Assembly: GCA_965552055.1 (NCBI GenBank)
Contig: CBEVQO010000001.1
Coordinates: forward strand, 320,001-384,000
DNA: 64,000 nt
Direction: 5' to 3'
Source: an uncultured bacterium
GTDB lineage: Bacteria; Hydrothermota; UBA3073; NMUJ01; CBEVQO01
The notes beneath the pieces were generated by a model. It was given only the letters and a program-made list of their open reading frames with translations. It was not told where the DNA came from and searched no databases. Numbering within the stretch: the first letter of the stretch is position 1; every line of letters starts with the position of its first letter. Position numbers and translations under genes: made by a program. Below are positions 17,704 through 63,277 of the stretch, in pieces.

Positions 17704-20266
17704 GTCCCAATCCCTTATAAATGGACTCAAAACCTAAACAAGTTTCAATCCCTTATAGCAGGCTCGAAACTATCCGAGAGATTGCTTGGAAGTGTGGTGG
17801 TATGCTTTAAAGTTTCAATCCCTTATAGGTAGGCTCGAAACAGGTAAATAAAAGGAGGCGACTATGAACTTAAAAAATTTGTTTCAATCCCTTATAGGTA
17901 GGCTCGAAACATATTCGATTGGATATGATGTTGTCATAGCTCGACAAAGTTTCAATCCCTTATAGGTAGGCTCGAAACTTTCTTATCGGATTATTGGTTT
18001 ATTGGCTTTTATCAAGTTTCAATCCCTTATAGGTAGGCTCGAAACTTTTACTCGCCTCGCCAATTCGCAGTCGATTTAGATGTTTCAATCCCTTATAGGT
18101 AGGCTCGAAACTACCCATCTGGGAGAGGAAACGCTTGAAGAAGATTTGTTTCAATCCCTTATAGGTAGGCTCGAAACCAAGACCAAGTTGTCCTCGCCAC
18201 GCTCCACACTTCTTAGTTTCAATCCCTTATAGGTAGGCTCGAAACTTTGACATCGATTTCTGCCTTTTTGATGATTTTGTCGTTTCAATCCCTTATAGGT
18301 AGGCTCGAAACGAGATACTCAGGGAAGAATAATAGGAGCAAAGTCTCGTTTCAATCCCTTATAGGTAGGCTCGAAACCTTAAATTTAATGGTAGGAACAT
18401 TAAGAAGTATATAAGTTTCAATCCCTTATAGGTAGGCTCGAAACCGGCCGTGAAGCGTATCATGGATGACCTCGTGCCTTACGTTTCAATCCCTTATAGG
18501 TAGGCTCGAAACGCTGAAAAGCCCCGTTGAAGGTGACATCAGAGAAGGTGTGTTTCAATCCCTTATAGGTAGGCTCGAAACCTAAATGGAGCAAAGCCAG
18601 CCTCGTAATCGGGCTGTGGTTTCAATCCCTTATAGGTAGGCTCGAAACTCTTGTGGCGTGAATGTATCTCTGACATAATATTCATCGTTTCAATCCCTTA
18701 TAGGTAGGCTCGAAACTATGCTTGTGACGAGTTTGAAAGACAATTCCCTTACAGGTGTTTCAATCCCTTATAGGTAGGCTCGAAACGAATTACTATACAG
18801 GCGGAATACAGAATAATGCATTAGTTTCAATCCCTTATAGGTAGGCTCGAAACTTAGCAGGTGCAACGGCAACAGGCACCGCAGGTGTTATAGTTTCAAT
18901 CCCTTATAGGTAGGCTCGAAACTCCGTTAGTCTGCAAAGGCATGAACGCAGATTTTGAGTTTCAATCCCTTATAGGTAGGCTCGAAACTCGCTTTTTCGA
19001 CATTTACCAGGTCAAAATTTTCGATGTTTCAATCCCTTATAGGTAGGCTCGAAACTTTTATATTAAAAAGTATAATTTAAATATTAATCCTGTGTTTCAA
19101 TCCCTTATAGGTAGGCTCGAAACGGGATAGGTATATAGCCACACTTCCTTATTTCCCCATGTTTCAATCCCTTATAGGTAGGCTCGAAACGGATAGGAAA
19201 GCGGCGCCGTTGATTTTCAAAAAGGAGTTTCAATCCCTTATAGGTAGGCTCGAAACGATCCTCGATTCGATCATTTTCGTGTCCGCAAATGGTTTCAATC
19301 CCTTATAGGTAGGCTCGAAACTGGAGGTGGTATGTTGAAGTTGTTTTTAAAAGAACAATGTTTCAATCCCTTATAGGTAGGCTCGAAACGTTAATGAGGA
19401 GGATTGATGTATCGATTGTTGACATATGTTTCAATCCCTTATAGGTAGGCTCGAAACATCAATTTTAAGAGATTTGCCTGGTGGTCCAATAGGCCTTTCA
19501 ATCCCTTATAGGTAGGCTCGAAACGAGTTTTATATTAAATGCACAAAATGCAATAAAATACTTTCAATCCCTTATAGGTAGGCTCGAAACTGTCGAAGCC
19601 TCTTCTTCTTGTTGAAGTTGATGAAATTTCTTTCAATCCCTTATAGGTAGGCTCGAAACGGGAAAAATATCGTCAGTATTTGCGTGCTAATGTCGTTCTT
19701 TCAATCCCTTATAGGTAGGCTCGAAACAAAATTTTCAAAAGAAGAAATTGAACTTGCTAAAAACTTTCAATCCCTTATAGGTAGGCTCGAAACTAGATTT
19801 GCCATCATCTTCGGGCAGGGGACTCAATGTCTTTCAATCCCTTATAGGTAGGCTCGAAACGAAAATTGAGGAGATTGAATGGAGTGAGAAAGAATTCTTT
19901 CAATCCCTTATAGGTAGGCTCGAAACCTATTAAGAGGTTTAGGTAGTTTGGTTTGTAATCGTTCTTTCAATCCCTTATAGGTAGGCTCGAAACATTCCAT
20001 GCGTCTGCTTCTTCACGAGTAGTGTTGCCAACTTTCAATCCCTTATAGGTAGGCTCGAAACGTGGTTTTACAGGTGGAATACATGATATAATCGAAGCTT
20101 TCAATCCCTTATAGGTAGGCTCGAAACAGAGTGGATAGAGGAATTCTTTGCCGAACCTGTATTAACTTTCAATCCCTTATAGGTAGGCTCGAAACGAAAC
20201 AGCGAAGAATTGTATTACGATGGGCATAGGATAACGCTTTCAATCCCTTATAGGTAGGCTCGAAAC
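17704..20266 (-). CRISPR. CRISPR array 1: 39 repeats / 38 spacers; repeat GTTTCGAGCCTACCTATAAGGGATTGAAAC on minus strand
   Basis: 25 canonical repeats 17812-19457; 12 leader-proximal variants ending GAAAG 19495-20266; two degenerate trailer repeats at 17704 and 17742 separated by 8 bp. Confidence 0.98.
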
Positions 20267-20408
20267 CCGTTTTTCAAAGAGCTCTTTTTCATTATTTTAT
20301 AATGATTTTCGTAGATTGTCAAGCTCATTTTTTGAAAAAATTCTGTGTCGACCCCCGATAGCCCCGGAACCCCAGGGGATCGACAATCCGCTTCACTACA
20401 TTATTTCC
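20267..20408 (-). promoter_or_regulatory. CRISPR leader of array 1
   Basis: Near-identical inverted copy of about 59251-59392; contains GTCGAtCCCC..GGGGGTCGAC inverted repeat and TTGACA/TATAAAAT promoter. Confidence 0.9.
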
Positions 20409-20557
20409 TATCCCTTTCCGGGTATCCCTCCGAGACGATAAATCACCTCTTCTTTCACACCACATTCTTTACAAACTTTTAAATCCCTTTTTAACTCATC
20501 GAAACTCAATTGCGGCTCCAACCTTGAAATATTTCTTAAATTATGTAATGTAAGAAT

Positions 20558-20591
20558 GTCAAGGGTAAAATGAAAAAAGTGGATTTTTATG
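20558..20591 (-). repeat. 34-bp element, inverted copy of 38400-38433
   Basis: gtcaagggtaaaatgaaaaaagtggatttttatg is the exact reverse complement of cataaaaatccacttttttcattttacccttgac. Confidence 0.9.
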
Positions 20592-20645: not shown

Positions 20646-20717
20646 GCCGAGGTAGCTCAGTGGTAGAGCGTGGGACTGAAAATCCCAGCGTCGGTGGTTC
20701 GATTCCACCCCTCGGCA
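20646..20717 (+). tRNA. tRNA-Phe(GAA), CCA not encoded
   Basis: GCCGAGG..CCTCGGC acceptor stem, TAGCTCAGTGGTAGAGC D arm, tggga-ctGAAaa-tccca anticodon arm, GGTTCGATTCC T arm. Confidence 0.96.
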
Positions 20718-20718
20718 T

Positions 20719-20790
20719 GCCGGCGTAGCTCAGCGGTAGAGCGGCGGTTTCGTAAACCGCAGGCCAGGGGTTCGAATCCCCTCGTCGGCT
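20719..20790 (+). tRNA. tRNA-Thr(CGT), CCA not encoded
   Basis: GCCGGCG..CGTCGGC acceptor, gcggt-ttCGTaa-accgc anticodon arm, GGTTCGAATCC T arm. Confidence 0.95.
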
Positions 20791-20802: not shown

Positions 20803-21561
20803 ATGAAAGCATTTGCACTTATTGGAAGTCCGAGAGTAGGCAATACCTTTAAATTGTGTGAAATTTTCCTTAAAAAATTACAAGAAAAAATCCCAATAGA
20901 ATACGAGATTAAAAGGATTGAGGACTTTAAAATTGAGTATTGTAAAGGTTGCGGCAACTGCATAGCGGGTAAAAATTGTCCTATTAACGACGATTTCAAA
21001 GAAGTCATTAATAAAATCAAATCTTCGGATTTATTTATATTTGCATCTCCTGTTTATGCTGAAAATGTAAGTGCTCAGACGAAAACTTTTATTGATAGAA
21101 ATTGTGGCAATTTCCATTTTCCTCCTTTTTGCGGTAAATACGCGATTGTGGCGTCAACCACAGCTGCTCATGGCTTATCCACTGTTTTGAAAATATTAAG
21201 AGCAAGTGTTGTGTGTTGGGGGATGAGTTGCATAGGTGAATTATCTGCAATATTTTGGGGAAATAAAATGAAAGACGAAGAAAAAGTTAAAAGAGAGATA
21301 GACAAATTGGCAAATAAAGTTGCGAGGATTTTAAAAGGAGAAGAAATATTTTCACCATCTTCATTTGACCTTATGATTTTTGAATCAATGAAAAAAGAAG
21401 CGTTTTATTCAAAATACTGGAATAAAGCAGAGTATAATTTCTGGAAAGAGAAAGGATTATTTAACCAAAAATATTATTCAAAGGATGTAAAAATAAATTT
21501 CCACAGGGTTTTACTTGCGAAATTTTTAATCTCTCTTTATTATAGCTTTGGGAGGATATAA
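20803..21561 (+). CDS. Flavodoxin-fold NADPH-dependent FMN reductase / iron-sulfur flavoprotein
   Basis: GSPRVGNT, CKGCGNC..C cluster motif, FASPVY..VSAQTKTFIDR. Confidence 0.88.
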   Translation: MKAFALIGSPRVGNTFKLCEIFLKKLQEKIPIEYEIKRIEDFKIEYCKGCGNCIAGKNCPINDDFKEVINKIKSSDLFIFASPVYAENVSAQTKTFIDRNCGNFHFPPFCGKYAIVASTTAAHGLSTVLKILRASVVCWGMSCIGELSAIFWGNKMKDEEKVKREIDKLANKVARILKGEEIFSPSSFDLMIFESMKKEAFYSKYWNKAEYNFWKEKGLFNQKYYSKDVKINFHRVLLAKFLISLYYSFGRI

Positions 21562-21587
21562 ATATGCCATGGTGATAAAAAAGGGGG

Positions 21588-24500
21588 ATGATGCGTGTGT
21601 TGTTGTTATTTTTTATTATAGGCGGGTTATATTCGGTTGGTTCAGCGGATACTATTACGGTAATAGACGGCGGTAAGGAGGCAAATTATCATGTCTCCGA
21701 TAATTTCTACAATTACAGCCTGCTCGAATACATATATCCCAAGGATTCTCTTACATCTGGTATCATAACTCGAATATGGTTTAAGCATAATGATTTTACT
21801 TACACGAAAACCAATCAGGTGATTTATATGGGGCATACGAATAAAAGTCATTTTGAGAGTAAGACCGACTGGATACCTTCAACCGAGTTAACACAGGTTT
21901 ACAGTGGCTCTTTTAATATAACAAATGGATGGGTTGAAATTACTCTGGATAATCCATTTACATATTATGGCTCAAAGAATCTTGTTATTATGATTGATAA
22001 CAATCAGGGGTCTTACCCTGGTAGTGACCGCAGATGGTATTATGAGAGCGGTTATAGTGCTCGATGCCTTGATTATCGCAGTGACGGAACCAACCCTGAC
22101 CCTGCGAATCCACCTGAAGCAAACTATTTACGCGATGAACTGGCGAACTTAAGAATAGAAATCAGTTACCCTGATACAAACATAGGAGTAATTGGATTTG
22201 TTTTCGCATCTTATTATCAAAAAAATTCCACAGATTCTATTGGACTTATTGTAAAGAATTTCGGAAATCATTCTCAAACTAATTTTTATGTATATTATGA
22301 CTTCAAAAGCGACCCGGGACGAGATTCCATGCAATATACATCGACACTGGCTCCTCAATCGGTTGATACAGTATTTATAGAATGGACTCCACAAACAGCA
22401 GGTGAGGACACTGTTTTTGGCTGGACTGAACTCGATGGCGATACATGGGTTCATGATGATACTTCAAAGAGCTGGATAAAGATTTTAGATGAAGGCGTAT
22501 TTGTGGATGAAGGATTTGAGAGAACGACTTTCCCGCCCACTGGCTGGACAACCCAAATAGTGAATAACACTGGATGGACCGACCCGGAATGGACAAGGGA
22601 AACATCAGGCAGTAGTCCATCCTGTTCGCCTCATAGTGGTGTAGCTATGGCAAAATTTAACTCCTATTCCTGTGACGATGGCGATGAAATGAGACTCATT
22701 ACTTATAGTTTTGATTTAAGCAGTGTATCCAGTTGTAGTCTGACTTTCTGGTGGTTTCACTGGTATAGCAATTCATTTTACAGAGATTCATTAATCATTG
22801 AGATTGACACAAATTCCAGTGGTAGTTGGATATGTTTAGATAGATTTCAGGCAGGAACTAAAGGTTCTGGTACAAACAGCTGGAAGAAGCGAGGAATTGA
22901 CATCAGCTCTTATTGGACACAAGAAAGTGCGTATCGCGATAACAGGTAAAAGCGATTACGATTATAACATCTATATTGATGATGTTAAGGTATTTAAGGT
23001 AGAAGTATTTAATAATGATGTTGGTATCATAGGATTTGTTAAGTCACAAAATTACATGGTGGGCAAATCCGATTCAATTGGACTTATAATAAAGAACTTC
23101 GGGAATAATTCCCAAAATGATTTCTGGGTGCACTACGATTTAAAAATTGACCCAGGTAGGGATTCTCTTCATTACACATCTACATTGAATTCTCAACAAA
23201 TTGATACAGTATTTATTGACTGGACGCCTCAGACTGCTGGTAGCGATTCTATTATAGGCTGGACAGTATTATCCGGGGATGAAAATACAGGGAATGATAC
23301 ATCAAAAACTTCTGTCAATATCCTTGAATCGGGAACTATACTGACAGAAGGATTTGAGAGCTCCACCTTTCCACCTGAAGGCTGGTGTATGTTTGGCTGG
23401 GATGAAGGAGTAGAGGTTGATGACCCCTGGCAGCGCTCTGATTTTAATCCACATGGTGGTGGATGGTGTGCCCGCACCAAATATGATATGAGTGGTGGCA
23501 CAGATTACTGGCTTGTATCTAAAAGAATTGACCTATCTGGATATGACATTATAACACTTAAATTCTACCATATACCGAAATATAACGATAACGCAAATTA
23601 TCTTAAAATAACAACACAGGCTGACTCAATGGATACAAGTGCATACACTATTCTACATACATTCTATGATAAAGGTACTGATTGGGAGTTATTTGAAATC
23701 GACTTATCAGATTATGCTGGTTGCACAATCTTTATTGCATGGAATGCAAAAGAAGAAAATGATTACGAGTACTGGTATCTTGATGATATTACGATAATTG
23801 CAGAGACAAGCCTTACTCATGATATAAAAATGGTTTCGATAATATCGCCACCTAAATTTGTAATGGAGCAAACTCCTTATATCCCGCGTGCAAAAATCAA
23901 AAATATAGGGAAAAATACAGAGACATTCAAAATCTTTTGTAAAGTTGACTCTTCAGGACATACGATTTTCAAAGACAGCGTTCAGGTCAATAATCTCAAA
24001 CCAGATTCCACAAAGGTTGTGAATTTCAGTTCATGGACACCTGCATCCGATGGAAATACTTATACACTTACTTTCTATACTGCATTATCAAATGACGGCG
24101 ATAAAAGCGATGATACTCTTACTTTGTCGGTTAAAGTTGTTAAACGACTACCTGTTGAGGCAATTAATCCTCTTCACTGGCCAAGTTTTATGCGTGATAT
24201 CGCAAATACAGGGAGAACAGATTGCGTTGGACCCGACACAATAGAATCGTATGCCTCATATTCAACTGGTGGAGCCATTCATTCCTCACCTGTTATAGAT
24301 AGTGATGGTACAGTATATTTTGGCTCTGATGACGGATACCTTTATGCGATGCATCCTGACTTATCGGGATATAAATGGAGATACGAGACACCCGGAGAAG
24401 CCATACGCTCAACCCCAGCAATAGACACAAATGGTAATATTTACTTTGGTTCAAACGATAATTACTTTTATTCTTTAGATTCAAATGGTAACTTCCGATG

Positions 24501-25545
24501 GCGTCATCTTTTAGCCAATCTTTATAATGTAGTTCATCCAGCGGTTATAGGAGATGACCAGAAAATATACATTGGAGCTGGCTCTAATTTTTATGCATTT
24601 AATCCAGATGGCTCAATCGCATGGCAACTTACTGCTCCAACAATAGCAGGAGATATCTCTACAGGAGCAGCACTCCGGGATAGCATCGTATATTTTGGCA
24701 CAACCAATGACCACTATCTTTATGCTGTGTGTAATGGCGTAGTCCTGTGGAAAAAACCATTACCAAGAGGAATAAATTCAACTCCTACTCTCAAAGGCGA
24801 TACAATATTTTTTGCATTGAATGATGGCAAACTTTATGCGATAAGGGACACAGGTGAGGGTTACAAGGATTTATGGGCAGTTCGCATAGACCCGCCTAAA
24901 TCTGGCTGGAGCGATGTCTATTATTCTTCACCTGCTGTTGGGTTTGACCACACAATTTATGTTGGAACGCCTTTCAATCATCTTGTGGCTGTATATCCCG
25001 ATGGTGAAATAAAATGGAAATTTAAAGTTCACGGCAAAGTATGGTCGTCACCTGTAGTTGACAGCAACGGCATAATCTATTTTGGCTCTCATGACGATAC
25101 ACTTTATGCCCTTGAAGATTTGGGCTCATGTGCACAGGTAGTATGGAAATTCGGAACAGGAGGCTCAATACGGAGTGCAGCAGCAATAAGAAACCCACTT
25201 TACTTTACATCCTTAGATGGTAAAATCTATTGTATAAATCCACCCAGTGCTGTTAAATTGAAAGAGAAAACCACACAAAAATTGAACGCTTTCTCACTTC
25301 AAGTTTATCCAAATCCTTCCAATAAAGAAATAATCATTCGATATTCCTGTCCTTACTCCTGTGAAGTTTCACTTAAGATATACGATGTATCAGGGAGATT
25401 GGTGAAAACTCTTGTGAATAGCAAAAAGAAGCCTGGCTCTTATATCATAAAATGCGATAATAAGGAATTTCCGTGCGGAATTTATTTTATCAGAATGCAA
25501 GCAGGAGAATTTCGTGCCACCAAAAAATTACTGCTAATACAATAA
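21588..25545 (+). pseudogene. Large secreted/surface protein (duplicated Ig-like + adhesin-like modules, PQQ-type beta-propeller, T9SS/FlgD-like C-terminal domain) split by a frameshift near 22910
   Basis: ORFs 21588-22949 and 22897-25545 join as IDISSY/IGHKKVRIAI; signal peptide; EGFE..FPP.GW repeats; SSPVIDSDGTVYFGS propeller repeats; VYPNP..IYDVSGRLV..GIYFIR C-terminus. Confidence 0.8.
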
Positions 25546-25650
25546 GCATAGAATTGGAATTACTTCGCTCTTTAACAAATTAAGGGGTAAGATGCGAGAA
25601 ACTATTATTATCTTTAAACTTGTGAGTATGTCAATGGTAGTTAAATAACC

Positions 25651-26415
25651 ATGGAGTGGTGGCAAAATTATTTTGATGAGATTTATCTCAAATTATACTC
25701 ACCAAAGGTGGACAATCCCAAAAGGATAAAAAGGGAAGTAGATTTCATAGAAAAAGCATTAAATCTTAAAAAAGATATGAAAATACTTGATTTGGCATGT
25801 GGACAGGGCAGACACGCAATTGAGCTCGCAAAAAGAGGATACAATGTTATTGGATTGGATTATTCTGATTATCTTTTAAATGTGGCAAAGGAGAGAACAA
25901 GGGAAGAAAAAGTAAAAGTAAAATTTGTAAAAGGAGATATGAGAAATTTACCTTTTGAAAATGAATTCGATGCAATCTATAATATGTTTACATCTTTTGG
26001 ATATTTTTCGGATGAGGATAACTTTAAAGTGTTAAAAAGTGTGCACCGGGCACTCAAACCGGGTGGCAAATTCCTTCTCGATATAGTAAACATATTTTGG
26101 CTGATTAAAAATTTTCAGCATAAAATGTGGTTAAAAACTGAAGATTTGATTTGTCTGGAGCAAAATGAATTCAATCCCGTTAATATGCGTTGTACAAACA
26201 AAAGAATAGTATTTGAGAAAGGAAAAGAAATAGACCAAAAGGAACATACAGTAAGATGTTACACTGCTGGCGAAATATCTTTCCTCATGAAACTTGCAAG
26301 ATTAGAGGTCGAAAAAATTTACGGAGATTACGATTTAAATGAATATTCTCTGGATAAAACCAGAATGATTGTCATAGCAAAGAAGAAGAGAAGCGATGAG
26401 AGAAATCGAAATTGA
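25651..26415 (+). CDS. Class I SAM-dependent methyltransferase
   Basis: ILDLACGQGRH, GDMRNLP, FTSFGYF, LKPGGKF. Confidence 0.92.
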   Translation: MEWWQNYFDEIYLKLYSPKVDNPKRIKREVDFIEKALNLKKDMKILDLACGQGRHAIELAKRGYNVIGLDYSDYLLNVAKERTREEKVKVKFVKGDMRNLPFENEFDAIYNMFTSFGYFSDEDNFKVLKSVHRALKPGGKFLLDIVNIFWLIKNFQHKMWLKTEDLICLEQNEFNPVNMRCTNKRIVFEKGKEIDQKEHTVRCYTAGEISFLMKLARLEVEKIYGDYDLNEYSLDKTRMIVIAKKKRSDERNRN

Positions 26416-26647
26416 TAAATTACAACCATCTCAACTTTATATAGAGAAGGAAAGATTTCAAAAAATTTTTGATGAATTTGACCCTGAAAACTATGAACCT
26501 GTGCCTGTAAATAAAAAAGTTACTTTACATAAAAATAAATGGATTATAATTGACTGGGATATTTCTCATGAGTTTCTTGTACATGAAGATATCATTTTCT
26601 TTTCGTTTCACACTTCAAAAGCGCCAGATAAGAAAATGCTGTGTTAA
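26396..26647 (+). pseudogene. Probable fused gene remnant (83 aa)
   Basis: N-part LQPSQLYI resembles a ParB-like start; C-part WIIIDWDISH..SFHTSK recurs at 29770-29850. Confidence 0.45.
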
Positions 26648-26686
26648 AAATGATATAAGGGATACCGGGAATAATTGGAGGTAAAA

Positions 26687-27250: not shown

Positions 27251-27262
27251 AAAGGGGGTAAA

Positions 27263-52567: not shown

Positions 52568-52907
52568 AATAATTACACCTATAAAACAAAAAGATTTAAA
52601 GGAAATATGGGAATTGACAAAGAAAACTTTTAGTAAAATAGGCACCGAACATTCGAGACAGAGGCTAATTTATGATTTACTTAACGCTTTGAGAACCCAT
52701 AATAGAAAAAAGTTCATAGAGTTGATTCTTAGGAAAATAAACACACTTAAATCGGAAGACAAAAATAATAAAATTAAACTTATGAATCGTCTTAGTAATG
52801 TTTATATTGAATATGACACAACCGAAAATTTTGAAAAAATGGCATATACTATTATAATGGGGATAATGAGCGTTGAAAGTGAAGAAAAAGGAGGGAAAAA
52901 TGAGTAA
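52554..52907 (+). CDS. Separately encoded small subunit (Cas11-like)
   Basis: Own GGAGG RBS; LIYDLLNALRTHNRKKFIELIL..FEKMAYTIIMGI resembles the C-terminal domain of the upstream Cas8. Confidence 0.7.
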   Translation: MRENEIITPIKQKDLKEIWELTKKTFSKIGTEHSRQRLIYDLLNALRTHNRKKFIELILRKINTLKSEDKNNKIKLMNRLSNVYIEYDTTENFEKMAYTIIMGIMSVESEEKGGKNE

Positions 52908-53979: not shown

Positions 53980-53980
53980 A

Positions 53981-54793
53981 ATGGGAAAAGTGCTTTATAT
54001 CAAGATTTTTCAACCCTTTGCTCAATACAGGAATCCATATACTTTTTATTATGCGCAAACTTATCCTTTACCTCCCAAATCCACAATCATTGGAATGTTA
54101 CAAAATGCAACTAACAGATATTATGATGAAAAATTTTGGAACCTTGAAGTAAGTGTTCATGGAGGGTTTGAGAGTATTTTTTGGAACTATCAACAATTAA
54201 TTAAAGGATTTCCTTATTTGGAGAAAATAGGAGGAAATATTTATTTAACCGGCAAAGATAAACTACTGCTATACGGTAAAGGTAAAAAGTCTCAGCGAAC
54301 TCCTGTGTATCAACAGGAACTATTTAACGGACATTTGCATATTTTCATTAGACTTAAAAAGAGCAAAGATAACGACAATCTCCTTGAGGAAATTAAAGAG
54401 GCTTTAAATAACCCTAAGAAAGTATTATCTTTAGGGAGAAGTGAAGATATAATTTTTATAAGAAAAGTGGAATTTGTTAACAAAGAAAATGTAGAAAAAG
54501 CTAAATCATTTAAATTATTTTACCCAACTTATATTAAACAAAAAAATCTCCAAATAAAAAAGCAAAAATATCCTGTATATTCGGTACCGGTAAAGGTTAT
54601 ATTTAAAAACAAAGGAATTCCAATAAAAAATAAATCTGAGATTTCGAAAAATACCGAAAGAGAAGTCGAATACGAAGTTGTGATATACACAGGGTTCGAT
54701 TATACTATAACCTTGAAAGAACCTAAAGAAATCGAGGAATTTAACATAGATGGATTAAGATTTAGAATAATTAAGGATTTCGGATGGTTATGA
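53981..54793 (+). CDS. cas5: Type I-B Cas5
   Basis: AQYRNP..TYPLPPKSTIIGML, LSLGRSED. Confidence 0.92.
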   Translation: MGKVLYIKIFQPFAQYRNPYTFYYAQTYPLPPKSTIIGMLQNATNRYYDEKFWNLEVSVHGGFESIFWNYQQLIKGFPYLEKIGGNIYLTGKDKLLLYGKGKKSQRTPVYQQELFNGHLHIFIRLKKSKDNDNLLEEIKEALNNPKKVLSLGRSEDIIFIRKVEFVNKENVEKAKSFKLFYPTYIKQKNLQIKKQKYPVYSVPVKVIFKNKGIPIKNKSEISKNTEREVEYEVVIYTGFDYTITLKEPKEIEEFNIDGLRFRIIKDFGWL

Positions 54794-57492
54794 ATTTGGA
54801 TTTATTGGAAATGTTAAGAGCCAAATCTGAAGGTGCTAATCTCTTTTTAAAGGATCATTTGCTCGAAACTTTAAAAAGAGTGAAGAAATTAAAAGATTTT
54901 ATAAAAAATAATAAAATAAAAATAGAAAATGCCGACAAATTTTTTGATAATTTAGCTCTCGCAGCTATTATCCACGATTTGGGTAAAATTAGCTATAAGT
55001 TTCAAAAAGAAATGTATAAGAAAGATGAAAGCGAATGGGAAAAAATAGAGAAATTCTTATCCCCTTTAAAGAAAGCCAAAGTACGCCATGAAATTCTTTC
55101 AGCAATTTGGGCTTCAATTTTACTTCAAGATAATGATGAATGGTCAAGGAAGATAAGAACAGCTGTATTATTGCATCACCGCAATGACTTCGTCAAAGAA
55201 GATAAAGAAATAAATTTAGCTGAAATCGTTGGAGAATACGAAGACGATGTTAAAAAATATGTAGAATTTATCTGCAATAATTGGGATAATTTAAAAAAAT
55301 TTTTTGATGATTTAATTTCATACTTTGAAAAAGGAAATATAAAATTTAAATCCTTAGAAACCTTTAAGAATAATTTGGAAAATTTAAAAGAAAGGGCAAA
55401 CGAGCTATTAAAAGTAATAAATAACGGTATTGGCTATCTTGAATTTGCTGAATTTTATGAAGCAAATAATTATAATCCTGATTATAACTTTTTATTTTTT
55501 ATGGGATGCCTAAGAAGATGCGATCACTCATCTAGTGCTGATGTCGATATCGAGAAAAACATAAAATTAGAAGATTTTTACAATGAAATGGAAAAGAATA
55601 TAAAACAAGAAATAAAGGCTCAAGGAAAGGAAATTTGGCAAGAAAAATTGTTAAAAAATGTTGGCAAAGAGTCAATAGTTCTAATAGCACCCACAGGTGC
55701 CGGAAAAACTGAATTTGCTCTACTATGGGCTAAGAATATAGGTAAAAAACTCATTTACACTTTACCCTTAAGAGTAGCCTTAAATGATCTTTATAAAAGA
55801 TTCATTAATTACATGTCTAGCAAAGATGAAAATGTGGGATTACTTCATTCTACTGCATTTATGGAATATGAGATTAAAAAAGAAGATTTGCTTCTTGAAG
55901 CAGAAATTGAATCAGAAAAAGAAATTACAAATGAAATTGAGAAAAAGATGTTAACGGCAAGGCTCCTTTCATATCCATTAATGCTTTCTACTCCCGATCA
56001 AGTTTTTCTTACTTCACTTAACTATTACGGTTCTGACATCATTATCTCAATTTATCCGCTATCAGCTTTTGTTGTCGATGAAATACAAACATATACTCCA
56101 ACGATGGCCGCTGTAATCATAAAAACTCTACAAATCATTAAAAACCTTGACGGAAAAATACTTGTGATGACTGCTACATTGCCGCCTTATTTTGAGCCTT
56201 TCTTTTTTGAAGATGCAAAATATATTGAAGAAATTAATGAAAGTAACCAAAAAATTTTATCTCAATATCGCTTAAATTTACAAAAAATAGATACGAAAGA
56301 TATGAAAAAAGAAGTTAGGAATTATGAATTAAAAAGACATAAAATTAAAATTGTTGAAAATAGCTTAATAGATGATTTAAAGGGTGACTTAAAAGTAAAC
56401 GAAAAAATTTTAGAAAATTGCTTAACTGAACTTAAAAATTCTGGCAAAAGAAACATCCTTATTGTTGTAAATAATGTAAGTAAAGCAATCAAAATTTATG
56501 AGTACTTAAAAAAGAAGTTTAATAAAAATATATTTCTACTTCACTCACGATTAATTGAAAAAGAGAAAGACAGGCGAATTCAATTGGTTAAAAAGCTCAT
56601 CAATAAATCCAAATCAAATAAAGATATAGAAGACATTGAAAAATTACGCTTAAAAAACGAAAATATTGATGTTAATTCTCCAACTATTGTTGTTGCAACC
56701 CAAATAATCGAAGCTTCTGTTGACTTCGATTTTGACGGTATGATAACCGAAATTTCACCGATTGATAGTCAAATACAAAGGTGGGGTAGGGTTTATAGAA
56801 ACCCAGAAAGAAGAGGCAATAAAGATTATAGTGAAGAACAACCCAATATTTATATTTCCACCGTAATCGATAAAAGAACAAAAGGTATTTACCGTGGAAA
56901 AATAATGAAGAAAATTCTGGAGGAAACTGTAAATGTTTTAAAACAATTTCAAAATACATTTTTAAATTATGAGGAAGAAAGAAGAATGATAGAAGAAGTC
57001 TTTGAGAAGAAAATTAACGGAAAAACTTTAAAAAATCAATTTATAAATGAAATATGTGAAACCTTAAAGTTTCTTAAGTATTCTTATTTATTTATCAAAG
57101 AAGAAACTGATGCAAGAAAACTTTTCAGGGAAATCACTTCATTTCAAGTCGTAATTCCAAAAATTATGGAACTTTACGGTCAAGAAAATCATAAAAATCT
57201 CGCTAAATTTATCGGTAAGTCTGAAAACAGATGTTTATCATGGAAAGAACTTGAAAAAGAAATGAAAATGGATAAGTGGGAAATAAAGAAAATCTTGTAT
57301 CTGTATTCTATAAATGTTCCTTTTTTCTACTTTACAAATTTGAAACTTCAAGGAAAATTGAGCGAGTTCAAAGGACTTTATGTATTAGATGTAAACGAAG
57401 AAGACGCGAAAATAATTTATGAATTCGGATTAGATAGATTTATGAAAAAACTTGGAGCCAAAGACGAAGAGGAAGAATTGCAAAAATTCTAA
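54790..57492 (+). CDS. cas3: Cas3 HD nuclease-helicase
   Basis: IIHDLGK, HH, APTGAGKTE, VVDEIQ, MTAT, LLHSR, QRWGRVYR. Confidence 0.97.
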   Translation: MNLDLLEMLRAKSEGANLFLKDHLLETLKRVKKLKDFIKNNKIKIENADKFFDNLALAAIIHDLGKISYKFQKEMYKKDESEWEKIEKFLSPLKKAKVRHEILSAIWASILLQDNDEWSRKIRTAVLLHHRNDFVKEDKEINLAEIVGEYEDDVKKYVEFICNNWDNLKKFFDDLISYFEKGNIKFKSLETFKNNLENLKERANELLKVINNGIGYLEFAEFYEANNYNPDYNFLFFMGCLRRCDHSSSADVDIEKNIKLEDFYNEMEKNIKQEIKAQGKEIWQEKLLKNVGKESIVLIAPTGAGKTEFALLWAKNIGKKLIYTLPLRVALNDLYKRFINYMSSKDENVGLLHSTAFMEYEIKKEDLLLEAEIESEKEITNEIEKKMLTARLLSYPLMLSTPDQVFLTSLNYYGSDIIISIYPLSAFVVDEIQTYTPTMAAVIIKTLQIIKNLDGKILVMTATLPPYFEPFFFEDAKYIEEINESNQKILSQYRLNLQKIDTKDMKKEVRNYELKRHKIKIVENSLIDDLKGDLKVNEKILENCLTELKNSGKRNILIVVNNVSKAIKIYEYLKKKFNKNIFLLHSRLIEKEKDRRIQLVKKLINKSKSNKDIEDIEKLRLKNENIDVNSPTIVVATQIIEASVDFDFDGMITEISPIDSQIQRWGRVYRNPERRGNKDYSEEQPNIYISTVIDKRTKGIYRGKIMKKILEETVNVLKQFQNTFLNYEEERRMIEEVFEKKINGKTLKNQFINEICETLKFLKYSYLFIKEETDARKLFREITSFQVVIPKIMELYGQENHKNLAKFIGKSENRCLSWKELEKEMKMDKWEIKKILYLYSINVPFFYFTNLKLQGKLSEFKGLYVLDVNEEDAKIIYEFGLDRFMKKLGAKDEEEELQKF

Positions 57493-57513
57493 TAAATTTC
57501 CTATCCGAATAAA

Positions 57514-58008
57514 ATGATTAGTGTGACAGGTACCATCCTAAACGCCTTTCTCATCTGTCCGAGAAAAGCATGGCTATTGGCAAGGGAACTATCTCCTGAC
57601 CCAGATAACGAACTAATACAACTCGGTAAACTAATCGCAGACGAAACTTTCAAAGATAAAAGAAAAGAAATTATCTTAGAAAATATAAAAATAGACCTTA
57701 TTGAAACCAAAAAGGGAAAATTAATAGTGGGAGAAATTAAAAAAGCATCCACTTTTATAGAAGCAGCAAAACTGCAACTCGCTTTCTACCTGTGGAAACT
57801 CAAAGAAAAAGATGTCAATGCCGAAGGCGAATTGATAATACCAAAAGAAAGAAAAAGAATCAAAATAGAACTATCTGATGAACTGATAAATAAACTTAAA
57901 AATACCATCTCTGAAGCCGAAAATTTAATAAAAATGGATAAACCGCCAAAACCCGTTAGAAAATCATTCTGTAAAAATTGTGCTTACAAAGAATTGTGCT
58001 TCGCTTAA
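57514..58008 (+). CDS. cas4: Cas4
   Basis: CPRKAW, KIDL..EIKK, QLAFYL, CKNCAYKELC. Confidence 0.95.
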   Translation: MISVTGTILNAFLICPRKAWLLARELSPDPDNELIQLGKLIADETFKDKRKEIILENIKIDLIETKKGKLIVGEIKKASTFIEAAKLQLAFYLWKLKEKDVNAEGELIIPKERKRIKIELSDELINKLKNTISEAENLIKMDKPPKPVRKSFCKNCAYKELCFA

Positions 58009-58009
58009 A

Positions 58010-58999
58010 ATGAAGTCAATTTACATATTCTCATCAGGAGAAATAAAAAGAAAAGAAAATACAATCTTCATAAACACAGAAGAAGGCAAAAAATTTATAC
58101 CAGTCGAGAACATAAGAGAAATCCTGATATTCGGAGAAGTATCCATCACCAAAAAATGTCTCGAATTATTATCACAAAAAGAAATTTGCGTGCACTTTTT
58201 CAATTATTATGGATATTACACAGGAACTTTTTATCCAAGAGAACATTATAACTCAGGATACATGTTATTAAAACAATGCGAACATTACCTTGATTATCAA
58301 AAAAGATTATATCTCGCAAAAAGATTCGTCGAAGGAGCATTCTTAAACATGTCAAAAGTATTACAATATTACAACAAAAGAGATATAAATCTTGGAGAAG
58401 AAATCGAAAAATTAGAAAATCTGGCATCGAAAATAAAAGATACCCAGAATATTGACGAATTGAGGGCGATAGAAGGAAATATGCGACATCATTACTATCT
58501 TTCTTTTGATAAAATAATATCAAATGAAAATTTCAGATTTAATGTGCGAAGCAGGAGACCGCCACAAAACAGACTTAATGCATTGATAAGTTTTGGCAAC
58601 TCTTTGCTTTATGTGGTGATTTTAAGTGAAATTTACAAAACACATCTCGACCCGAGAATAGGATTTTTGCACGAAACAAATTTCAGAAGATTTACACTAA
58701 ATCTGGATATAGCAGAAATTTTCAAACCGGTAATCGTTGACAGGATAATTTTTACGGTTTTAAATAAAGAAATGATAAGAGAAAACGATTTTGATGAAGA
58801 ACTGAAAGGAATATATTTGAAAAATAAAGGAAGGATAACTTTTATAAAGGAATTCGATAAAAAGCTGGATTCAACAATAAGGCACGAGAAGTTAAAAAGG
58901 AATGTGTCTTACAGGACTCTGATAAGGATGGAGTTGTATAAATTGGAGAAGCATTTTATGGGGGATGAGGATTATTTTCCTTATGTGGCGAGGTGGTGA
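58010..58999 (+). CDS. cas1: Type I-B Cas1
   Basis: HFFNYYGYYTGTFYP, IEG, RRPPQNRLNALISFGNSLLY, GFLHE, DIAEIFKP. Confidence 0.97.
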   Translation: MKSIYIFSSGEIKRKENTIFINTEEGKKFIPVENIREILIFGEVSITKKCLELLSQKEICVHFFNYYGYYTGTFYPREHYNSGYMLLKQCEHYLDYQKRLYLAKRFVEGAFLNMSKVLQYYNKRDINLGEEIEKLENLASKIKDTQNIDELRAIEGNMRHHYYLSFDKIISNENFRFNVRSRRPPQNRLNALISFGNSLLYVVILSEIYKTHLDPRIGFLHETNFRRFTLNLDIAEIFKPVIVDRIIFTVLNKEMIRENDFDEELKGIYLKNKGRITFIKEFDKKLDSTIRHEKLKRNVSYRTLIRMELYKLEKHFMGDEDYFPYVARW

Positions 59000-59263
59000 T
59001 GTATGTGATACTTGTTTACGATATAAATGAAAAGAGGGTGCAAAAAGTATTGAAGACATGCAGGAAATATCTTTACTGGGTACAGAATTCTGTTTTTTGA
59101 AGGAGAGATAACAGGTGCGAAATTTGAGAAGTTGAAGATGGAACTGGGGAAGATAATAAACCCGGATGAGGATTCAATAATATTTTACATTTTCAGGGCG
59201 AAATCCTACACGAGGAGAGAGACAATGGGAGTGATAAAAGGAGGAGAGGCAGAAATAGTGTAG
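58999..59263 (+). pseudogene. cas2: Cas2 interrupted by +1 frameshift in T6 run (59093-59098)
   Basis: MYVILVYDINEKRVQKVLKTCRKYLYWVQNSVF* continues in the +1 frame as EGEITGAKFEKLK..DEDSIIFY..EIV*; 87 aa when joined. Confidence 0.92.
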
Positions 59264-59392
59264 TGAAGCGGATTGTCGATCCCCTGGGGTTCCGGGGCTA
59301 TCGGGGGTCGACACAGAATTTTTTCAAAAAATGAGCTTGACAATCTACGAAAATCATTATAAAATAATGAGAAAGAGCTCTTTGAAAAACGA
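59264..59392 (+). promoter_or_regulatory. CRISPR leader of array 2
   Basis: GTCGAtCCCC..GGGGGTCGAC inverted repeat, TTGACA (59337) and TATAAAAT; abuts first repeat. Confidence 0.9.
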
Positions 59393-62300
59393 GTTTCGAG
59401 CCTACCTATAAGGGATTGAAACACTCCTGATGGCATAGAAAATATGCAAGCGATTGATCTATTGTTTCGAGCCTACCTATAAGGGATTGAAACCGATTTT
59501 CCGAGCTATTGCTTCAAGCCCTTCAATCGCCTGTTTCGAGCCTACCTATAAGGGATTGAAACGATTTTTTATCCTCACTGACATTTGTCCCTCCTTTTAA
59601 TGTTTCGAGCCTACCTATAAGGGATTGAAACTTAGATACTTGAGTAATTCATCCGCGGATTTTATCTCGTTTCGAGCCTACCTATAAGGGATTGAAACCG
59701 TTTTTCTTGAATTCACTCTGTAGGAAATATTTAGGGTTTCGAGCCTACCTATAAGGGATTGAAACTTATCATCAATCTTCACGAAATCAGATTTCATAAA
59801 ACAAGTTTCGAGCCTACCTATAAGGGATTGAAACATTTTTTATCTCCAACAACAACATATCTCATGATTCACGTTTCGAGCCTACCTATAAGGGATTGAA
59901 ACTTTTATTCATTCAATTGGTTGCTTGTATTTTTTGGCCGGTTTCGAGCCTACCTATAAGGGATTGAAACGGCTAAATCCCATCATGACCATTCGCCTGA
60001 TTGCGAGTTTCGAGCCTACCTATAAGGGATTGAAACAGGTCCCTGTTCTTCAATCTTTTCCAGTATGCTACCAAGTTTCGAGCCTACCTATAAGGGATTG
60101 AAACCGCAAGTGCGCTGAATTCTTCGCACCGCCGATTTCCTCATGTTTCGAGCCTACCTATAAGGGATTGAAACTCGCCAGCACACTTCTCGACGTGTCC
60201 TGCCTTTCAGTCACGAGTTTCGAGCCTACCTATAAGGGATTGAAACGTTCAAAGTCATACCAAATCCTTCCAAAAAATATAAAGTTTCGAGCCTACCTAT
60301 AAGGGATTGAAACTTTAAATAATCCCAAATAGAAAGCTCAAAAACATATTGGTTTCGAGCCTACCTATAAGGGATTGAAACTTTGCATACGGCGGGGTTG
60401 CTGGGCGCAACATTGTCGATGGTTTCGAGCCTACCTATAAGGGATTGAAACTTAAAATTTCACGCAGATGGTCTCTTACTTCTTCCGCGTTTCGAGCCTA
60501 CCTATAAGGGATTGAAACTATCGGTATTACTACATACCAGACGCTCAATTGATTTCCTGTTTCGAGCCTACCTATAAGGGATTGAAACGTATTCGCGTAG
60601 CGTCCACCATGTCTTCTTATAATGGTTTCGAGCCTACCTATAAGGGATTGAAACGATAAAGCTAAGGAAGTAGCTGAAAAAATCCAAGAAAGTTTCGAGC
60701 CTACCTATAAGGGATTGAAACTAGTTCAATTTTGTCAATTGTAGCTGGTTTAAGAGATTGTTTCGAGCCTACCTATAAGGGATTGAAACATCCATGAACT
60801 CGGTAAAGAAGTCAATAACGCGGTCTTGTTTCGAGCCTACCTATAAGGGATTGAAACAAAAGCTCGAAAAGAACAAAAGGCTGACAAGGGTGGAAGTTTC
60901 GAGCCTACCTATAAGGGATTGAAACTCTTTAATCTGCGGAACTTGAGCCATAATGTTAAAGTTTCGAGCCTACCTATAAGGGATTGAAACGAAGACTGCA
61001 CGGTTCGGATCTTTTGTTTTCACAATTTTGTTTCGAGCCTACCTATAAGGGATTGAAACGTGAAAGTCGAAATTGAAAAATTGCCACATAAAGTTGGTTT
61101 CGAGCCTACCTATAAGGGATTGAAACTGAAAATCATCGAAGAACTTAATGCCGAAAAAACTGGTTTCGAGCCTACCTATAAGGGATTGAAACCCTCGTCG
61201 TTTTCAACCCCGGCGTCATATAGGTTAAAAAGTTTCGAGCCTACCTATAAGGGATTGAAACACTGAACACATACTTTCAGCCCCAATGTTTCTTTGAAAG
61301 TTTCGAGCCTACCTATAAGGGATTGAAACTCCCGAAGGCTTAATCGTAACCTTTCTGTCTCCAATGTTTCGAGCCTACCTATAAGGGATTGAAACTTTCC
61401 TTCTATACGCTTTAACCATCCTTTCTGGTGGAGTTTCGAGCCTACCTATAAGGGATTGAAACTCGCTTGGGTGCTAACTTGAACTGACATTCCTTCATTG
61501 TTTCGAGCCTACCTATAAGGGATTGAAACTTGTCATTTAATTCAAAAACAACCGCTGTAGCAGGAAGGTTTCGAGCCTACCTATAAGGGATTGAAACTGA
61601 AGAAGTCCCTTACCACGCAAAAGGACGGAAAATTGAGTTTCGAGCCTACCTATAAGGGATTGAAACCGTCTACCCGTAATATGCATCCGCAGGGTTGGAT
61701 CGTTTCGAGCCTACCTATAAGGGATTGAAACACCATATTTCCCTGTCAAATGGCTGTAAACATCCAAGTTTCGAGCCTACCTATAAGGGATTGAAACTTT
61801 CAGAACAAAAGACAAAAAGTTTTGGTGGCAACCGTTTCGAGCCTACCTATAAGGGATTGAAACGAAATCTCTGAAACTGAAAAAATTTCCGAAACTGAAA
61901 AGTTTCGAGCCTACCTATAAGGGATTGAAACTTTCAGAACAAAAGACAAAAAGTTTTGGTGGCAACCGTTTCGAGCCTACCTATAAGGGATTGAAACTTG
62001 TAATAAGCTATGAGATTCGGTATCTCTTTTGCTAACTGGTTTCGAGCCTACCTATAAGGGATTGAAACTCCTTATAAACTCAACGCCGAATCATGGGACT
62101 ACGAATGTTTCGAGCCTACCTATAAGGGATTGAAACTTCCTCCTTCCCTTATCTTCCACAAATATTTAATTAGTTTCGAGCCTACCTATAAGGGATTGAA
62201 ACGATAGGCTTAACTTTGAACGGGGCAATACGCAAAAGGGTTTCGAGCCTACCTATAAGGGATTGAAACTTTCCTTTTCCCTGCCCAATCCGATATGTTG

Positions 62301-63277
62301 TCAACGTTTCGAGCCTACCTATAAGGGATTGAAACTTTTAGTTGATGGCAAAAAGCACTATGTCTGCGATGTTTCGAGCCTACCTATAAGGGATTGAAAC
62401 CCTTTTATTTTTTACCATCATTCCATACCTCCACCAGTTTCGAGCCTACCTATAAGGGATTGAAACCATTATGAGGTGTTAAATTGACTATTGACATTTT
62501 CCCGTTTCGAGCCTACCTATAAGGGATTGAAACGATTTTTCAAGTTCACCATCGGCTCCTTTGCCTTTAGCGTTTCGAGCCTACCTATAAGGGATTGAAA
62601 CGAAGCTGAAGCAATGCCAATTTCTTATATTGGTAAGGTTTCGAGCCTACCTATAAGGGATTGAAACATGGTTTCGCCAACCGTGAGCACTCGATTACTA
62701 TTCACGTTTCGAGCCTACCTATAAGGGATTGAAACGATACAATTTTAGAAACAGCAGCTGACATAACAGCAAGTTTCGAGCCTACCTATAAGGGATTGAA
62801 ACCCCAAAATCGTCAAAGAAAAAGAGGAAATCGTGCGTGAGTTTCGAGCCTACCTATAAGGGATTGAAACGTTGTCTTATGTTTTCGATGTAGGTCTTGC
62901 GCAATTCTTCGTTTCGAGCCTACCTATAAGGGATTGAAACTTAGAAAAATATCATTATTTTTCTGATATAAAAAGACAGTTTCGAGCCTACCTATAAGGG
63001 ATTGAAAGAGATTTGATAAAAGGGAATTTAGTGAAAAACTTAAAAGTTTCGAGCCTACCTATAAGGGATTGAAAGATTTTTTTCATCACAGGAGAATCAT
63101 ATATTTGTTCCAAAAGTTTCGAGCCTACCTATAAGGGATTGAAATTTCACCAATCTGTGGGCCTCACTGATAGTTAATCTCGTTTCGAGCCTACCTATAA
63201 GGGATTGAAATAATACTACATTGCTCATAAGCAACACGACAACCTTTGTTTCGAGCCTACCTATAAGGGATTGAAAT
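59393..63277 (+). CRISPR. CRISPR array 2: 58 repeats / 57 spacers; repeat GTTTCGAGCCTACCTATAAGGGATTGAAAC
   Basis: 53 canonical repeats, then 2 ending GAAAG (62979, 63046) and 3 ending GAAAT (63116, 63182, 63248); repeat remnant at about 63285-63300. Confidence 0.98.

Follow-up and report, generated by a model that had tools for sequence, protein, structure and literature searches.

The two inverted CRISPR arrays of the window, by which we mean the whole 64,000-nucleotide stretch of DNA analysed here, probably grew where they now stand, and their blocks of repeat variants would record successive changes of the leader-proximal repeat. The last base of the 30-nt repeat, in which the variants differ, is a switching hot spot in this organism. 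Across five arrays, eight of the nine block switches fall at repeat position 30, with a chance of 1.3e-11 for one given position. The same kind of block recurs in arrays that are independent of the pair in the window, and we infer that the switches in array 1 and array 2 happened in place. A 43.5-kb flip between the two arrays is possible.

Both arrays were parsed with a 30-nt consensus repeat, GTTTCGAGCCTACCTATAAGGGATTGAAAC. Array 1 (17812-20266, minus strand) contains 37 perfect-length repeats, which read from the leader as 12 repeats ending GAAAG (19495..20266) followed by an older block of 25 repeats ending GAAAC (17812..19457). Its trailer end (17704..17770) carries two degenerate terminal repeats, one of 29 nt at 17742-17770, with an indel and a GAAAC end by direct reading, and one at 17704-17733, which ends GGGAC and was also recovered in a search allowing up to 7 mismatches. 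Array 2 (59393-63277, plus strand) contains 58 repeats, with 53 ending GAAAC next to the leader (59393..62940), and at its old end (62979..63277) two ending GAAAG (62979, 63046) and three ending GAAAT (63116, 63182, 63248). The parsing reproduces the order of blocks given by the sequence-only reading for both arrays, 12 GAAAG and then GAAAC in the first and 53 GAAAC, 2 GAAAG and 3 GAAAT in the second, and sets the older block of array 1 at 25. Regular identical repeats with unique spacers of similar length (35-42 nt) mark both loci as CRISPR arrays; within array 2, spacer 36 is identical to spacer 38. The variants form two uninterrupted runs in array 1 and three in array 2, and if 12 G repeats were ordered at random among 37, such runs would essentially never be expected.

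Leader 1 (20267..20407, minus strand) adjoins the GAAAG block of array 1, and leader 2 (59252..59392, plus strand) adjoins array 2. Together they form a 140-nt inverted repeat of 99% identity (20268-20407 / 59252-59391), by far the longest of the region. By eye, leader 1 shows the hexamers TTGACA and TATAAA of a candidate promoter. A conserved AT-rich core, some 125-140 nt long and with both hexamers, is common to the leaders of all three arrays of the genome, and degenerate terminal repeats lie at the opposite end in arrays 1 and 3. The homology of the two leaders starts 12 nt upstream of the cas2 stop codon; since it covers the last 12 nt of cas2, leader 1 is a copy of the cas2-adjacent leader, an origin that agrees with array 1 having been seeded with GAAAC repeats. 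The last leader base is G in leader 1 (20267) and A in leader 2, in the leader of array 3 and in leader 1 of a related strain. The newest block of array 1, GAAAG, coincides with this derived G in the window's lineage, and the pairing looks like the mark of a change that was both local to the leader end and recent. Further out, a 37-nt promoter-like block (20555..20591, minus strand) is a 97% inverted copy of 38400-38436.

Last-base switching was also found in arrays with no partner for an inversion to swap with. Array 3, on contig C6, contains 66 repeats, which from the leader read as 28 GAAAT repeats with G6T, 27 GAAAC repeats with G6T, 7 GAAAC and 1 GAAAG, then two truncated repeats and a terminal GAAAG. 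Its last-base blocks are thus T28 / C34 / G, amounting to two last-base switches and one other, all in place. A metagenome contig, L017, opens in leader 1, matches the leader-1-specific flank and differs from leader 1 of the window solely at the last base; it comes from a related strain with flanks 99% identical. Its leader-1 array reads C5, T2, C12; most of its repeats thus end GAAAC, as do those in the older block of array 1. In L016, from the same strain and beside the MFS gene (flank identity 99.1% over 1371 nt), 29 GAAAC repeats and one repeat with a 1-nt deletion are followed by a terminal GAAAT. Block switches thus occur without a partner array both in array 3 and in the leader-1 array of the related strain. 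The switch rate in the independent arrays is 5 in 110 repeat-to-repeat steps, about one per 22 repeats, and returns to C recur, from G in array 3 and from T in L017 and L016.

Addition of a spacer by Cas1-Cas2 duplicates the leader-adjacent repeat, so a change in that repeat is inherited by all later repeats and leaves a sharp block boundary. Array 2 would then have passed from GAAAT to GAAAG and on to GAAAC, while array 1 may have been seeded from the cas2-adjacent leader during the GAAAC phase, with its GAAAG change recent. CRISPR arrays in general grow in a polarised way, with inherited leader-proximal repeat variants and degenerate terminal repeats. The arrays described here follow this pattern, with variants in uninterrupted blocks, the newest block touching the leader in arrays 1 and 3, and degenerate repeats at the trailer. 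They depart from plain random mutation during array growth in that eight of nine switches sit at the last base and C is repeatedly restored.

Two candidate causes of the hot spot may be considered. Given how Cas6 processes crRNA, the last repeat base would be position -1 of the crRNA tag, and relaxed constraint on that position could let it vary. Alternatively, a one-base slip of integration could turn the first base of the incoming spacer into the last base of the repeat. A last repeat nucleotide derived from the PAM is described for type I-E and suggested for I-C by Vink et al. (2021, PMC8482600); a last base that comes from incoming DNA offers a possible route to such a hot spot. By that mechanism the last base of each repeat would go with its own spacer, whereas here the variants pass on as blocks, the longest of 28 repeats. 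The PAM-derived route would therefore fit only as an occasional one-base slip with normal copying afterwards.

The genes beside the arrays were assigned with NCBIfam. On the minus strand next to array 1 lies a type III-A module (7169..17558) with cas10/csm1 (15402-17558; TIGR02578, 439 bits, cut-off 170), csm2 (15040-15405), csm3 (14094-15038), csm4 (13127-14128) and csm5 (12054-13130). All five exceed their cut-offs (models TIGR02578, TIGR01870, TIGR02582, TIGR01903 and TIGR01899), and this gene set defines type III-A. A csm6-like CARF/HEPN gene follows (10726-12078, minus strand), which scores 42 bits with the Pfam Csm6 HEPN model (cut-off 27) and 55 bits with TIGR02672, under the cut-off of 150; three further minus-strand genes (10275-10742, 9862-10275 and 7169-9862) carry no assignment.

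The type I-B module (49907..58999) is on the plus strand throughout and consists of cas6 (49907-50632, above cut-off), a 626-aa gene in the cas8b position (50687-52567) with no family match in NCBIfam or Pfam, a small gene (52554-52907), cas7 (52873-53979; TIGR02585) and cas5 (53981-54793; TIGR01895), then cas3 (54784-57492; TIGR01587/TIGR01596), cas4 (57514-58008) and cas1 (57980-58999; TIGR03641, Cas1b, 470 bits, cut-off 304). The cas7, cas5 and cas3 matches are above cut-off, and the module also matches TIGR01877 and TIGR00372. In a three-frame translation, cas2 (58999..59263, plus strand) is split over two frames, with 33 codons, a stop and the remainder one frame over past a T-run, with 1 internal TGA. 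The genome has no other cas2 match, and the frameshift may be either real or a sequencing error. The I-B and III-A gene content claimed from sequence alone is borne out, except that cas2 is interrupted and the gene in the cas8b position has no assignment.

Between the two loci lie tRNA-Phe(GAA) and tRNA-Thr(CGT) (20646..20790, plus strand; ARAGORN) and about 29 kb of non-CRISPR genes on the plus strand (20803..49905), within the segment proposed to be inverted. These include an FMN reductase-like gene, a T9SS-tailed protein, several methyltransferases and peptidases, four minus-strand genes at 34664-38164, and then hpt, ftsH, folP, cdaA, prs and argS. The two CRISPR loci are therefore separated by about 29 kb of housekeeping genes, whichever the orientation.

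The main rival to growth in place holds that about 43.5 kb (19458-62978) was inverted by homologous recombination between 30-nt repeats, whereby the arrays exchanged tails and the I-B genes came apart from the III-A genes; we regard this history as possible, on the improbable side. The starting arrays would have been an all-GAAAC array in the order cas2-leader-array-cas10 and a GAAAG/GAAAT array beside the MFS gene. The crossover would join the last GAAAC repeat of array 1 (19428..19457, minus strand) with the first GAAAG repeat of array 2 (62979..63008, plus strand), which are inverted and identical except for the last base. As the variable bases are 19428 and 63008, any crossover is confined to 19429-19457 and 62979-63007. 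When the segment was flipped in a script, one array held 78 GAAAC repeats and the other 14 GAAAG and 3 GAAAT, so the earlier claim of far more homogeneous arrays holds, its figure of about 80 GAAAC corresponding to 78 perfect repeats, and to 80 if the two degenerate copies are counted. As had been claimed, cas10-csm then lies directly downstream of the I-B genes with their leader and array; flipping any two ordinary loci with divergent transcription would automatically give this contiguous order.

The flip replaces three switches with one, and identical inverted repeats lie at both proposed breakpoints. The 99% leader pair further suggests recent copies of the locus or continuing sequence exchange. 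Other observations also run against growth in place: GAAAG is present in both arrays, just what a swap of tails would produce; inverted substrates are present, as 37 x 58 identical 30-nt repeat pairs and the 140-nt leaders; and among 207 spacers compared, no spacer-sharing relative was found that shows the present order to be ancestral. A likelihood ratio was computed over the exact switch positions and the identities of the bases, with the switch rate of the independent arrays (5/110) and a crossover pair drawn uniformly from 78 x 17 pairs. The ratio of no inversion to inversion, L(H0)/L(H1), was 0.33-0.60, which mildly favours the flip (1.7 to 3 times), and for priors of 0.05-0.3 the posterior of the inversion was 0.08-0.56. 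The data barely move the prior, and by this calculation the two histories are about equally likely. Arrays 1 and 2 together have 93 repeat steps, and their three switches agree with the 5/110 rate (binomial P = 0.19); the single switch of the flip scenario has P = 0.06.

The argument from homogeneity is weak because last-base switches happen in place about once per 22 repeats. Thus the flip does tidy both arrays, as the sequence-only reading had noted in inferring recombination, but it is not compelled, since the same base switches alone in array 3 and L017. The inversion also implies that the leader-1 array of the window's lineage was never GAAAC, whereas that of the related strain is GAAAC/GAAAT. 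A passage of PMC7145637 says that rearrangements splitting CRISPR loci are 'rarely fixed'. No independent trace of an inversion was found in the comparisons below, nor a polarity discontinuity specific to the arrays.

Raw GC skew tracks gene direction. A GC3/AT3 strand classifier was trained on contigs C2-C5 and assigned 76-79% of the training genes correctly. Its mean log-likelihood ratio for '+ strand leading' is +1.63 in the left flank, +0.86 in csm, -0.24 at 20.8-34k, +1.33 at 34.6-38.2k, -0.98 at 38.4-49.9k, -0.97 in the I-B genes and -1.15 in the right flank. Strand-composition polarity changes exactly once in the present order (about 38.3 kb) and once in the flipped order. Since one boundary of the reversed-polarity block (about C1:300.9k to about 358.3k) lies inside the segment, a flip leaves the pattern unchanged and the test is symmetric. 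The 300.9k boundary was considered as a replication origin and ruled out, dnaA being on C7; no inverted repeat joining both polarity boundaries was found.

Comparison with other genomes covered argS synteny in 31 genomes (30 relatives and the window's own). ArgS matches occur in 28 of them, with a best identity of 53%. A tblastn search of 12 argS loci of up to 20 kb each, with the 115 ORFs that lie between 30 kb left of the window and 100 kb past its start, found no neighbour of the window's argS beside argS in these loci, the relatives being too distant for synteny. The sole extra match was an unrelated ORF at +93.7 kb (2 loci, 25-26% identity). Among species genomes, near-identical repeats were confined to arrays of Moorellaceae and Thermosediminibacter, none of which has cas genes closer than 10 kb. 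A Cas10 comparison across 272 genomes of the phylum, counting the window's own, gave 37% identity at best.

Among 207 spacers (three arrays, L016 and L017), no shared pair was found beyond the identical spacers 36 and 38 within array 2; in particular, the contigs of the related strain, which do not hold whole arrays, have no spacer in common with the window's arrays. Spacer 18787-18823 is common to the window and run X3. The two spacers beside the switch points had no protospacers in viral contigs, and no spacer had a full-length self-match in the genome. Nine public runs were considered, all as k=31 Logan contigs, which break at every repeat; the best covers a 0.29 share of the stretch. Contigs from four runs mapped on 17600-20900 end at repeats and none spans that stretch, so a missing flipped form in the run contigs carries no weight.

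A second rearrangement would be recombination within the 140-nt leader pair (20268-20407 / 59252-59391) that flipped only the 38.8 kb between them. Such an event would leave the repeat blocks untouched, still as switches in place, while parting the I-B genes from the array-1/III-A unit or bringing the two together. We judge it improbable. The leaders are the longest inverted repeat of the region (140 nt, 99%), and the event would likewise yield a contiguous super-locus; nothing requires it, however, the three leader differences show no sign of a chimera, and the composition test is blind here by the same symmetry. In contigs from other samples, leader 1 joins the tRNA-side flank (X2) and leader 2 joins the cas2 flank (X1), as in the window. 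These joins are compatible with an older leader-mediated event.

An assembly artefact, in which the segment between the arrays was traversed in the wrong orientation, is very improbable: the genome is a 15-contig draft and no run covers half of the stretch, but unique sequence brackets every repeat because the arrays have no spacers in common. Each junction is thus resolved by reads or k-mers that exceed about 31 nt. For the orientation to be wrong, misjoins at 30-nt repeats would have had to occur twice and to match, and contigs of other samples confirm the ends examined (trailer-1/csm, leader-1/tRNA, leader-2/cas2 and trailer-2/MFS).

Chromosomal rearrangements associated with CRISPR were reportedly described in Thermotogales by DeBoy et al. 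in 2006 (J Bacteriol 188:2364). The present case resembles them in a thermophilic host, in same-repeat inverted CRISPR loci tens of kb apart, and in cas6-cas2 and csm cassettes beside the arrays; whereas the inversions in Thermotoga were reportedly inferred through genome comparison, the evidence here is a repeat pattern inside one genome. A passage of PMC5637354 also refers to such rearrangements in Thermotogales. Recombination can exchange array segments and may be underestimated, according to part of Kupczok, Landan and Dagan (2015, PMC4524480). The passages concerned deal with exchange between strains, seen in spacer order, and not with a reciprocal swap between inverted arrays of one chromosome; their 'order inversions' are conflicts of spacer order, not chromosomal inversions. 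More broadly, the arrays and their near-identical 140-nt leaders could act as a recombination hinge, with a real 43.5-kb inversion through 30-nt repeats having exchanged the old halves of a cas-adjacent and a distant array and split one I-B/III-A locus, and with flips that may recur, a reading we hold to be doubtful.

Rearrangement of chromosomes in connection with CRISPR is a known kind of event, already reported and first inferred in Thermotogales. If true, the inversion would illustrate cleanly, from one genome, how 30-nt CRISPR repeats can reshape a chromosome and let arrays exchange immune memory. Should the hinge reading hold, flips would move spacers between arrays, and last-base variants would serve as natural lineage marks that allow a readout from a single genome. 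With switching in place as the preferred explanation, the more useful result is a caution. Blocks of last-base variants are weak evidence for recombination in this lineage because the base flips often (eight of nine switches, about one per 22 repeats). The hot spot is of interest in itself, with its repeated return to C and a newest switch that accompanies a change of the last leader base, and it may be a sign of the I-B adaptation complex slipping during integration.

Arrays 1 and 2 share the same 30-nt repeat in inverted orientation, are transcribed divergently, and lie in a draft genome of 2.23 Mb in 15 contigs, where the window occupies C1:320001-384000 of contig C1. Array 1 (17812-20266, repeat sense minus, 37 repeats) has two degenerate terminal repeats (17704-17770, minus) and a leader at 20267-20407 (minus), and leads into cas10-csm2-csm3-csm4-csm5-csm6 at 17558-10726. 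Ahead of array 2 (59393-63277, plus, 58 repeats) stand cas6, a large gene without family, cas7, cas5, cas3, cas4, cas1 and a cas2 with a frameshift (49907-59263); an MFS transporter gene comes after the array. The interval from leader 1 to cas6 holds two tRNA genes and ∼29 kb of ordinary genes, including hpt, ftsH, folP, cdaA, prs and argS. The genome has a single cas2 match (58999-59263). It is broken by a one-base frameshift in a T run, with a stop after 33 codons and the remainder in the frame one base along; the break may reflect a genuine loss of adaptation or an error in the homopolymer.

Several other features of the window were recorded. Downstream of csm6, three genes without family (7169-10742) may be type III accessory genes; the S1 RNA-binding match of one of them, an 897-aa protein, is weak (26 bits). 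Spacers 36 and 38 of array 2 (61798-61833 and 61932-61967) are identical, with one differing spacer in between. Tandem clan AA aspartic protease-like genes at 47243-47668 and 47665-48117 have an exact 300-nt repeat in common (region 47240-47961). At 35837-36879, two genes on the minus strand (35848-36348 and 36282-36869) consist of nested 21-, 33- and 54-nt repeats and of 134-214-nt copies that are 96-97% identical, a composition which suggests repetitive, probably coiled-coil products.

The repeat-variant blocks described in the sequence-only reading were confirmed. Read from the leader outwards, array 1 has 12 repeats ending in GAAAG and then 25 in GAAAC, while array 2 has 53 GAAAC, 2 GAAAG and 3 GAAAT repeats. 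That reading had explained the blocks by a reversal of 19458-62978 through recombination between single repeats. When this segment was reverse-complemented by script, the simulated arrays did become more homogeneous, as claimed, with 78 GAAAC repeats in one and 14 GAAAG plus 3 GAAAT in the other. In the flipped order, cas10 comes immediately downstream of the I-B genes, leader 2 and the long array, as that reading had proposed. This does not serve as extra evidence of an inversion, because any two normal loci facing apart would automatically give the same arrangement.

The variants do not by themselves imply an inversion, because similar blocks occur in an array that has no inversion partner. 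Array 3 (C6:20626-25044, on another contig of the same genome) has 66 repeats, shares the leader core of arrays 1 and 2, and showed no cas neighbours. From its leader, it has 28 repeats with G6T and GAAAT, 27 with G6T and GAAAC, 7 consensus repeats, 1 GAAAG, 2 truncated repeats and a terminal GAAAG. Lacking an inversion partner, these blocks must be leader-proximal repeat changes passed to later repeats.

Contigs of a very close strain are present in a public metagenome. One of them, L016, covers array 2 at its trailer end together with the MFS flank (99.1% identity over 1371 nt), and its array consists of 29 GAAAC repeats, then a repeat shortened by a 1-nt deletion and, last, GAAAT. Another, L021, carries the trailer of array 3 (99.06% identity over 1170 nt). 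A third, L017, opens with leader 1: the upstream bases specific to leader 1 match, and the last base is its one difference from leader 1 of the window; the array that follows runs five GAAAC, two GAAAT and twelve GAAAC repeats. Repeat position 30 is a hot spot, being the site of eight of the nine block switches in five arrays. Whenever the base left G or T in the independent arrays (three switches), it went back to C.

The independent arrays show 5 switches per 110 repeat steps. At this rate, arrays 1 and 2, with 93 steps in all, would have three switches with a probability of 0.19 and one switch, as the flip implies, with a probability of 0.06. A likelihood ratio was then calculated that counts exact positions, base identities and a crossover pair uniform over 78 × 17. 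By this measure the inversion is mildly favored, with L(no inversion)/L(inversion) of 0.33 for equal base choices and 0.60 when choices are weighted towards return to C. Across priors of 0.05 to 0.3 the inversion posterior is 0.08-0.56, so that the block pattern hardly shifts the prior. Set against the inversion, with small weight, is the related strain: its leader-1 array is mainly GAAAC, as in the old block of array 1, whereas an inversion would mean that GAAAC was never present in the leader-1 array of the window's lineage. By reasoning rather than computation, events summed over both strains come to five under either history. More likely than not, arrays 1 and 2 switched in place; the repeat-to-repeat inversion is a less probable second reading.

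Strand composition is neutral between the two. GC3 and AT3 skews were trained on contigs C2-C5 to tell leading- from lagging-strand genes (mean GC3 skew 0.26 and 0.02, respectively) and assigned 76-79% of training genes correctly. The C1 replichore has the minus strand leading, except for a ∼57-kb block of opposite polarity from ∼300.9k to ∼358.3k (window -19.1k to 38.3k). Its left edge is sharp, the mean log-likelihood ratio (LLR) changing from -2.1 to +1.8 between adjoining 15-kb bins. Within and around the window, the mean LLR for a leading plus strand is +1.63 in the left flank, +0.86 in csm, -0.24 at 20.8-34k, +1.33 at 34.6-38.2k, -0.98 at 38.4-49.9k, -0.97 in the I-B genes and -1.15 in the right flank. 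The flanks are thus opposite in sign, and the single sign change falls within 19458-62978. The GC-skew analysis proposed in the sequence-only reading therefore finds one polarity change in the present and the flipped order alike, and is blind to the inversion. The ∼57-kb block may itself be an older inversion with ends away from the arrays; no inverted repeat linking its two edges was found. The dnaA gene is on contig C7.

Comparison with relatives was limited by distance. The genome is the only member of its family among those compared, ArgS identity is at most 53% across 30 relatives, and nothing from the window's neighborhood adjoins argS in 12 relative loci. The Cas proteins likewise lack near relatives in the phylum. 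Among its 272 genomes, the window's own included, 35 have Cas10 matches at E 1e-30 or better, and the best Cas10 is 37% identical. The closest repeats are in Thermosediminibacter and one Moorellaceae genome. In Thermosediminibacter, Cas10 and Cas1 homologues are on different contigs, so separate I-B and III loci with one repeat are not unusual. No spacer was common to the window arrays and the related strain's contigs (207 spacers compared).

A further candidate event involves the leaders. The 140 nt shared in inverted orientation by leaders 1 and 2 (99% identity; 20268-20407 and 59252-59391) are a better recombination substrate than any single 30-nt repeat. The homology begins 12 nt before the cas2 stop codon, inside the cas2 3′ end, indicating that leader 1 was copied from the leader beside cas2; leader structure is common to the three arrays. 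A leader-to-leader crossover would flip 38.8 kb and leave the repeat blocks untouched, and is compatible with in-place switching. It would also bring the I-B and III-A modules together or separate them, so the argument from a split super-locus is not specific to a repeat-to-repeat event. We consider a leader-to-leader flip improbable.

The last leader base is G in the window's leader 1 (20267) and A in L017 leader 1 and in leaders 2 and 3, and in the newest block of array 1 (19495-20266) the last base of the repeat has gone from C to G. Together these are in keeping with an event confined to the leader end. The two changes to G flank the leader-proximal repeat of array 1, one at each end. In both leaders, TTGACA and TATAAA hexamers follow a GC-rich palindrome, GTCGAT...GGGGGTCGAC. 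Another inverted pair (97%; 20555-20591 and 38400-38436) consists of a 37-nt promoter-like block (CATAAAAATCCACTTTTTTCATTTTACCCTTGAC...), with one copy facing leader 1 and the other facing hpt-ftsH.

A wrongly oriented segment in the assembly is very unlikely, since unique spacers bracket each repeat, reads or k-mers longer than ∼31 nt resolve every junction, and the error would take two matching misjoins. The public runs with parts of the stretch are hydrothermal vent or sediment metagenomes, where labelled; all are Logan contigs, and each has under half of the sampled words of 17500-21500. These contigs end at each repeat because k = 31 cannot cross a 30-nt repeat; over 17600-20900 they bear out the assembled flanks. 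Contig sets X1 and X2, from two runs, confirm the csm side of the array 1 trailer; X2 joins leader 1 to the tRNA side, and in X1 leader 2 is contiguous with cas2, as is leader 3 with its flank on C6. A 73-nt contig of X1, at 20263-20309, has a leader end one base off leader 1 joined to a different repeat, with the loose end GTTGCAATCCCCCTATTAAGGGTCAA; some other organism or array in that sample combines this leader end with another repeat family.

For in-place switching, a leader-proximal repeat would change and later repeats would inherit the change, giving the sharp blocks of arrays 1 and 2. Speculatively, the hot spot could reflect weak constraint on crRNA tag position -1, presumably the last repeat base, or integration that occasionally lands one base into the repeat. 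In such slipped integration, the first base of the new spacer would become the last repeat base and be copied thereafter. PMC8482600 describes the last repeat base as PAM-derived in type I-E and suggests the same for I-C. A search for protospacers of the two spacers beside the switch points found none in viral contigs, and no spacer had a full-length match elsewhere in the genome.

Rearrangement at such loci also has precedent. CRISPR loci of Thermotoga are reported as sites of large rearrangements in PMC5637354, which lists DeBoy et al. (2006) among its references. Array evolution is said to involve recombination in PMC4524480, and PMC7145637 states that "rarely fixed" rearrangements may break arrays apart and that spacers could be moved by recombination between CRISPRs. 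Block inheritance of repeat variants, recurring at one position, was observed across arrays, and in-place switching and inversion are both a known kind of event.
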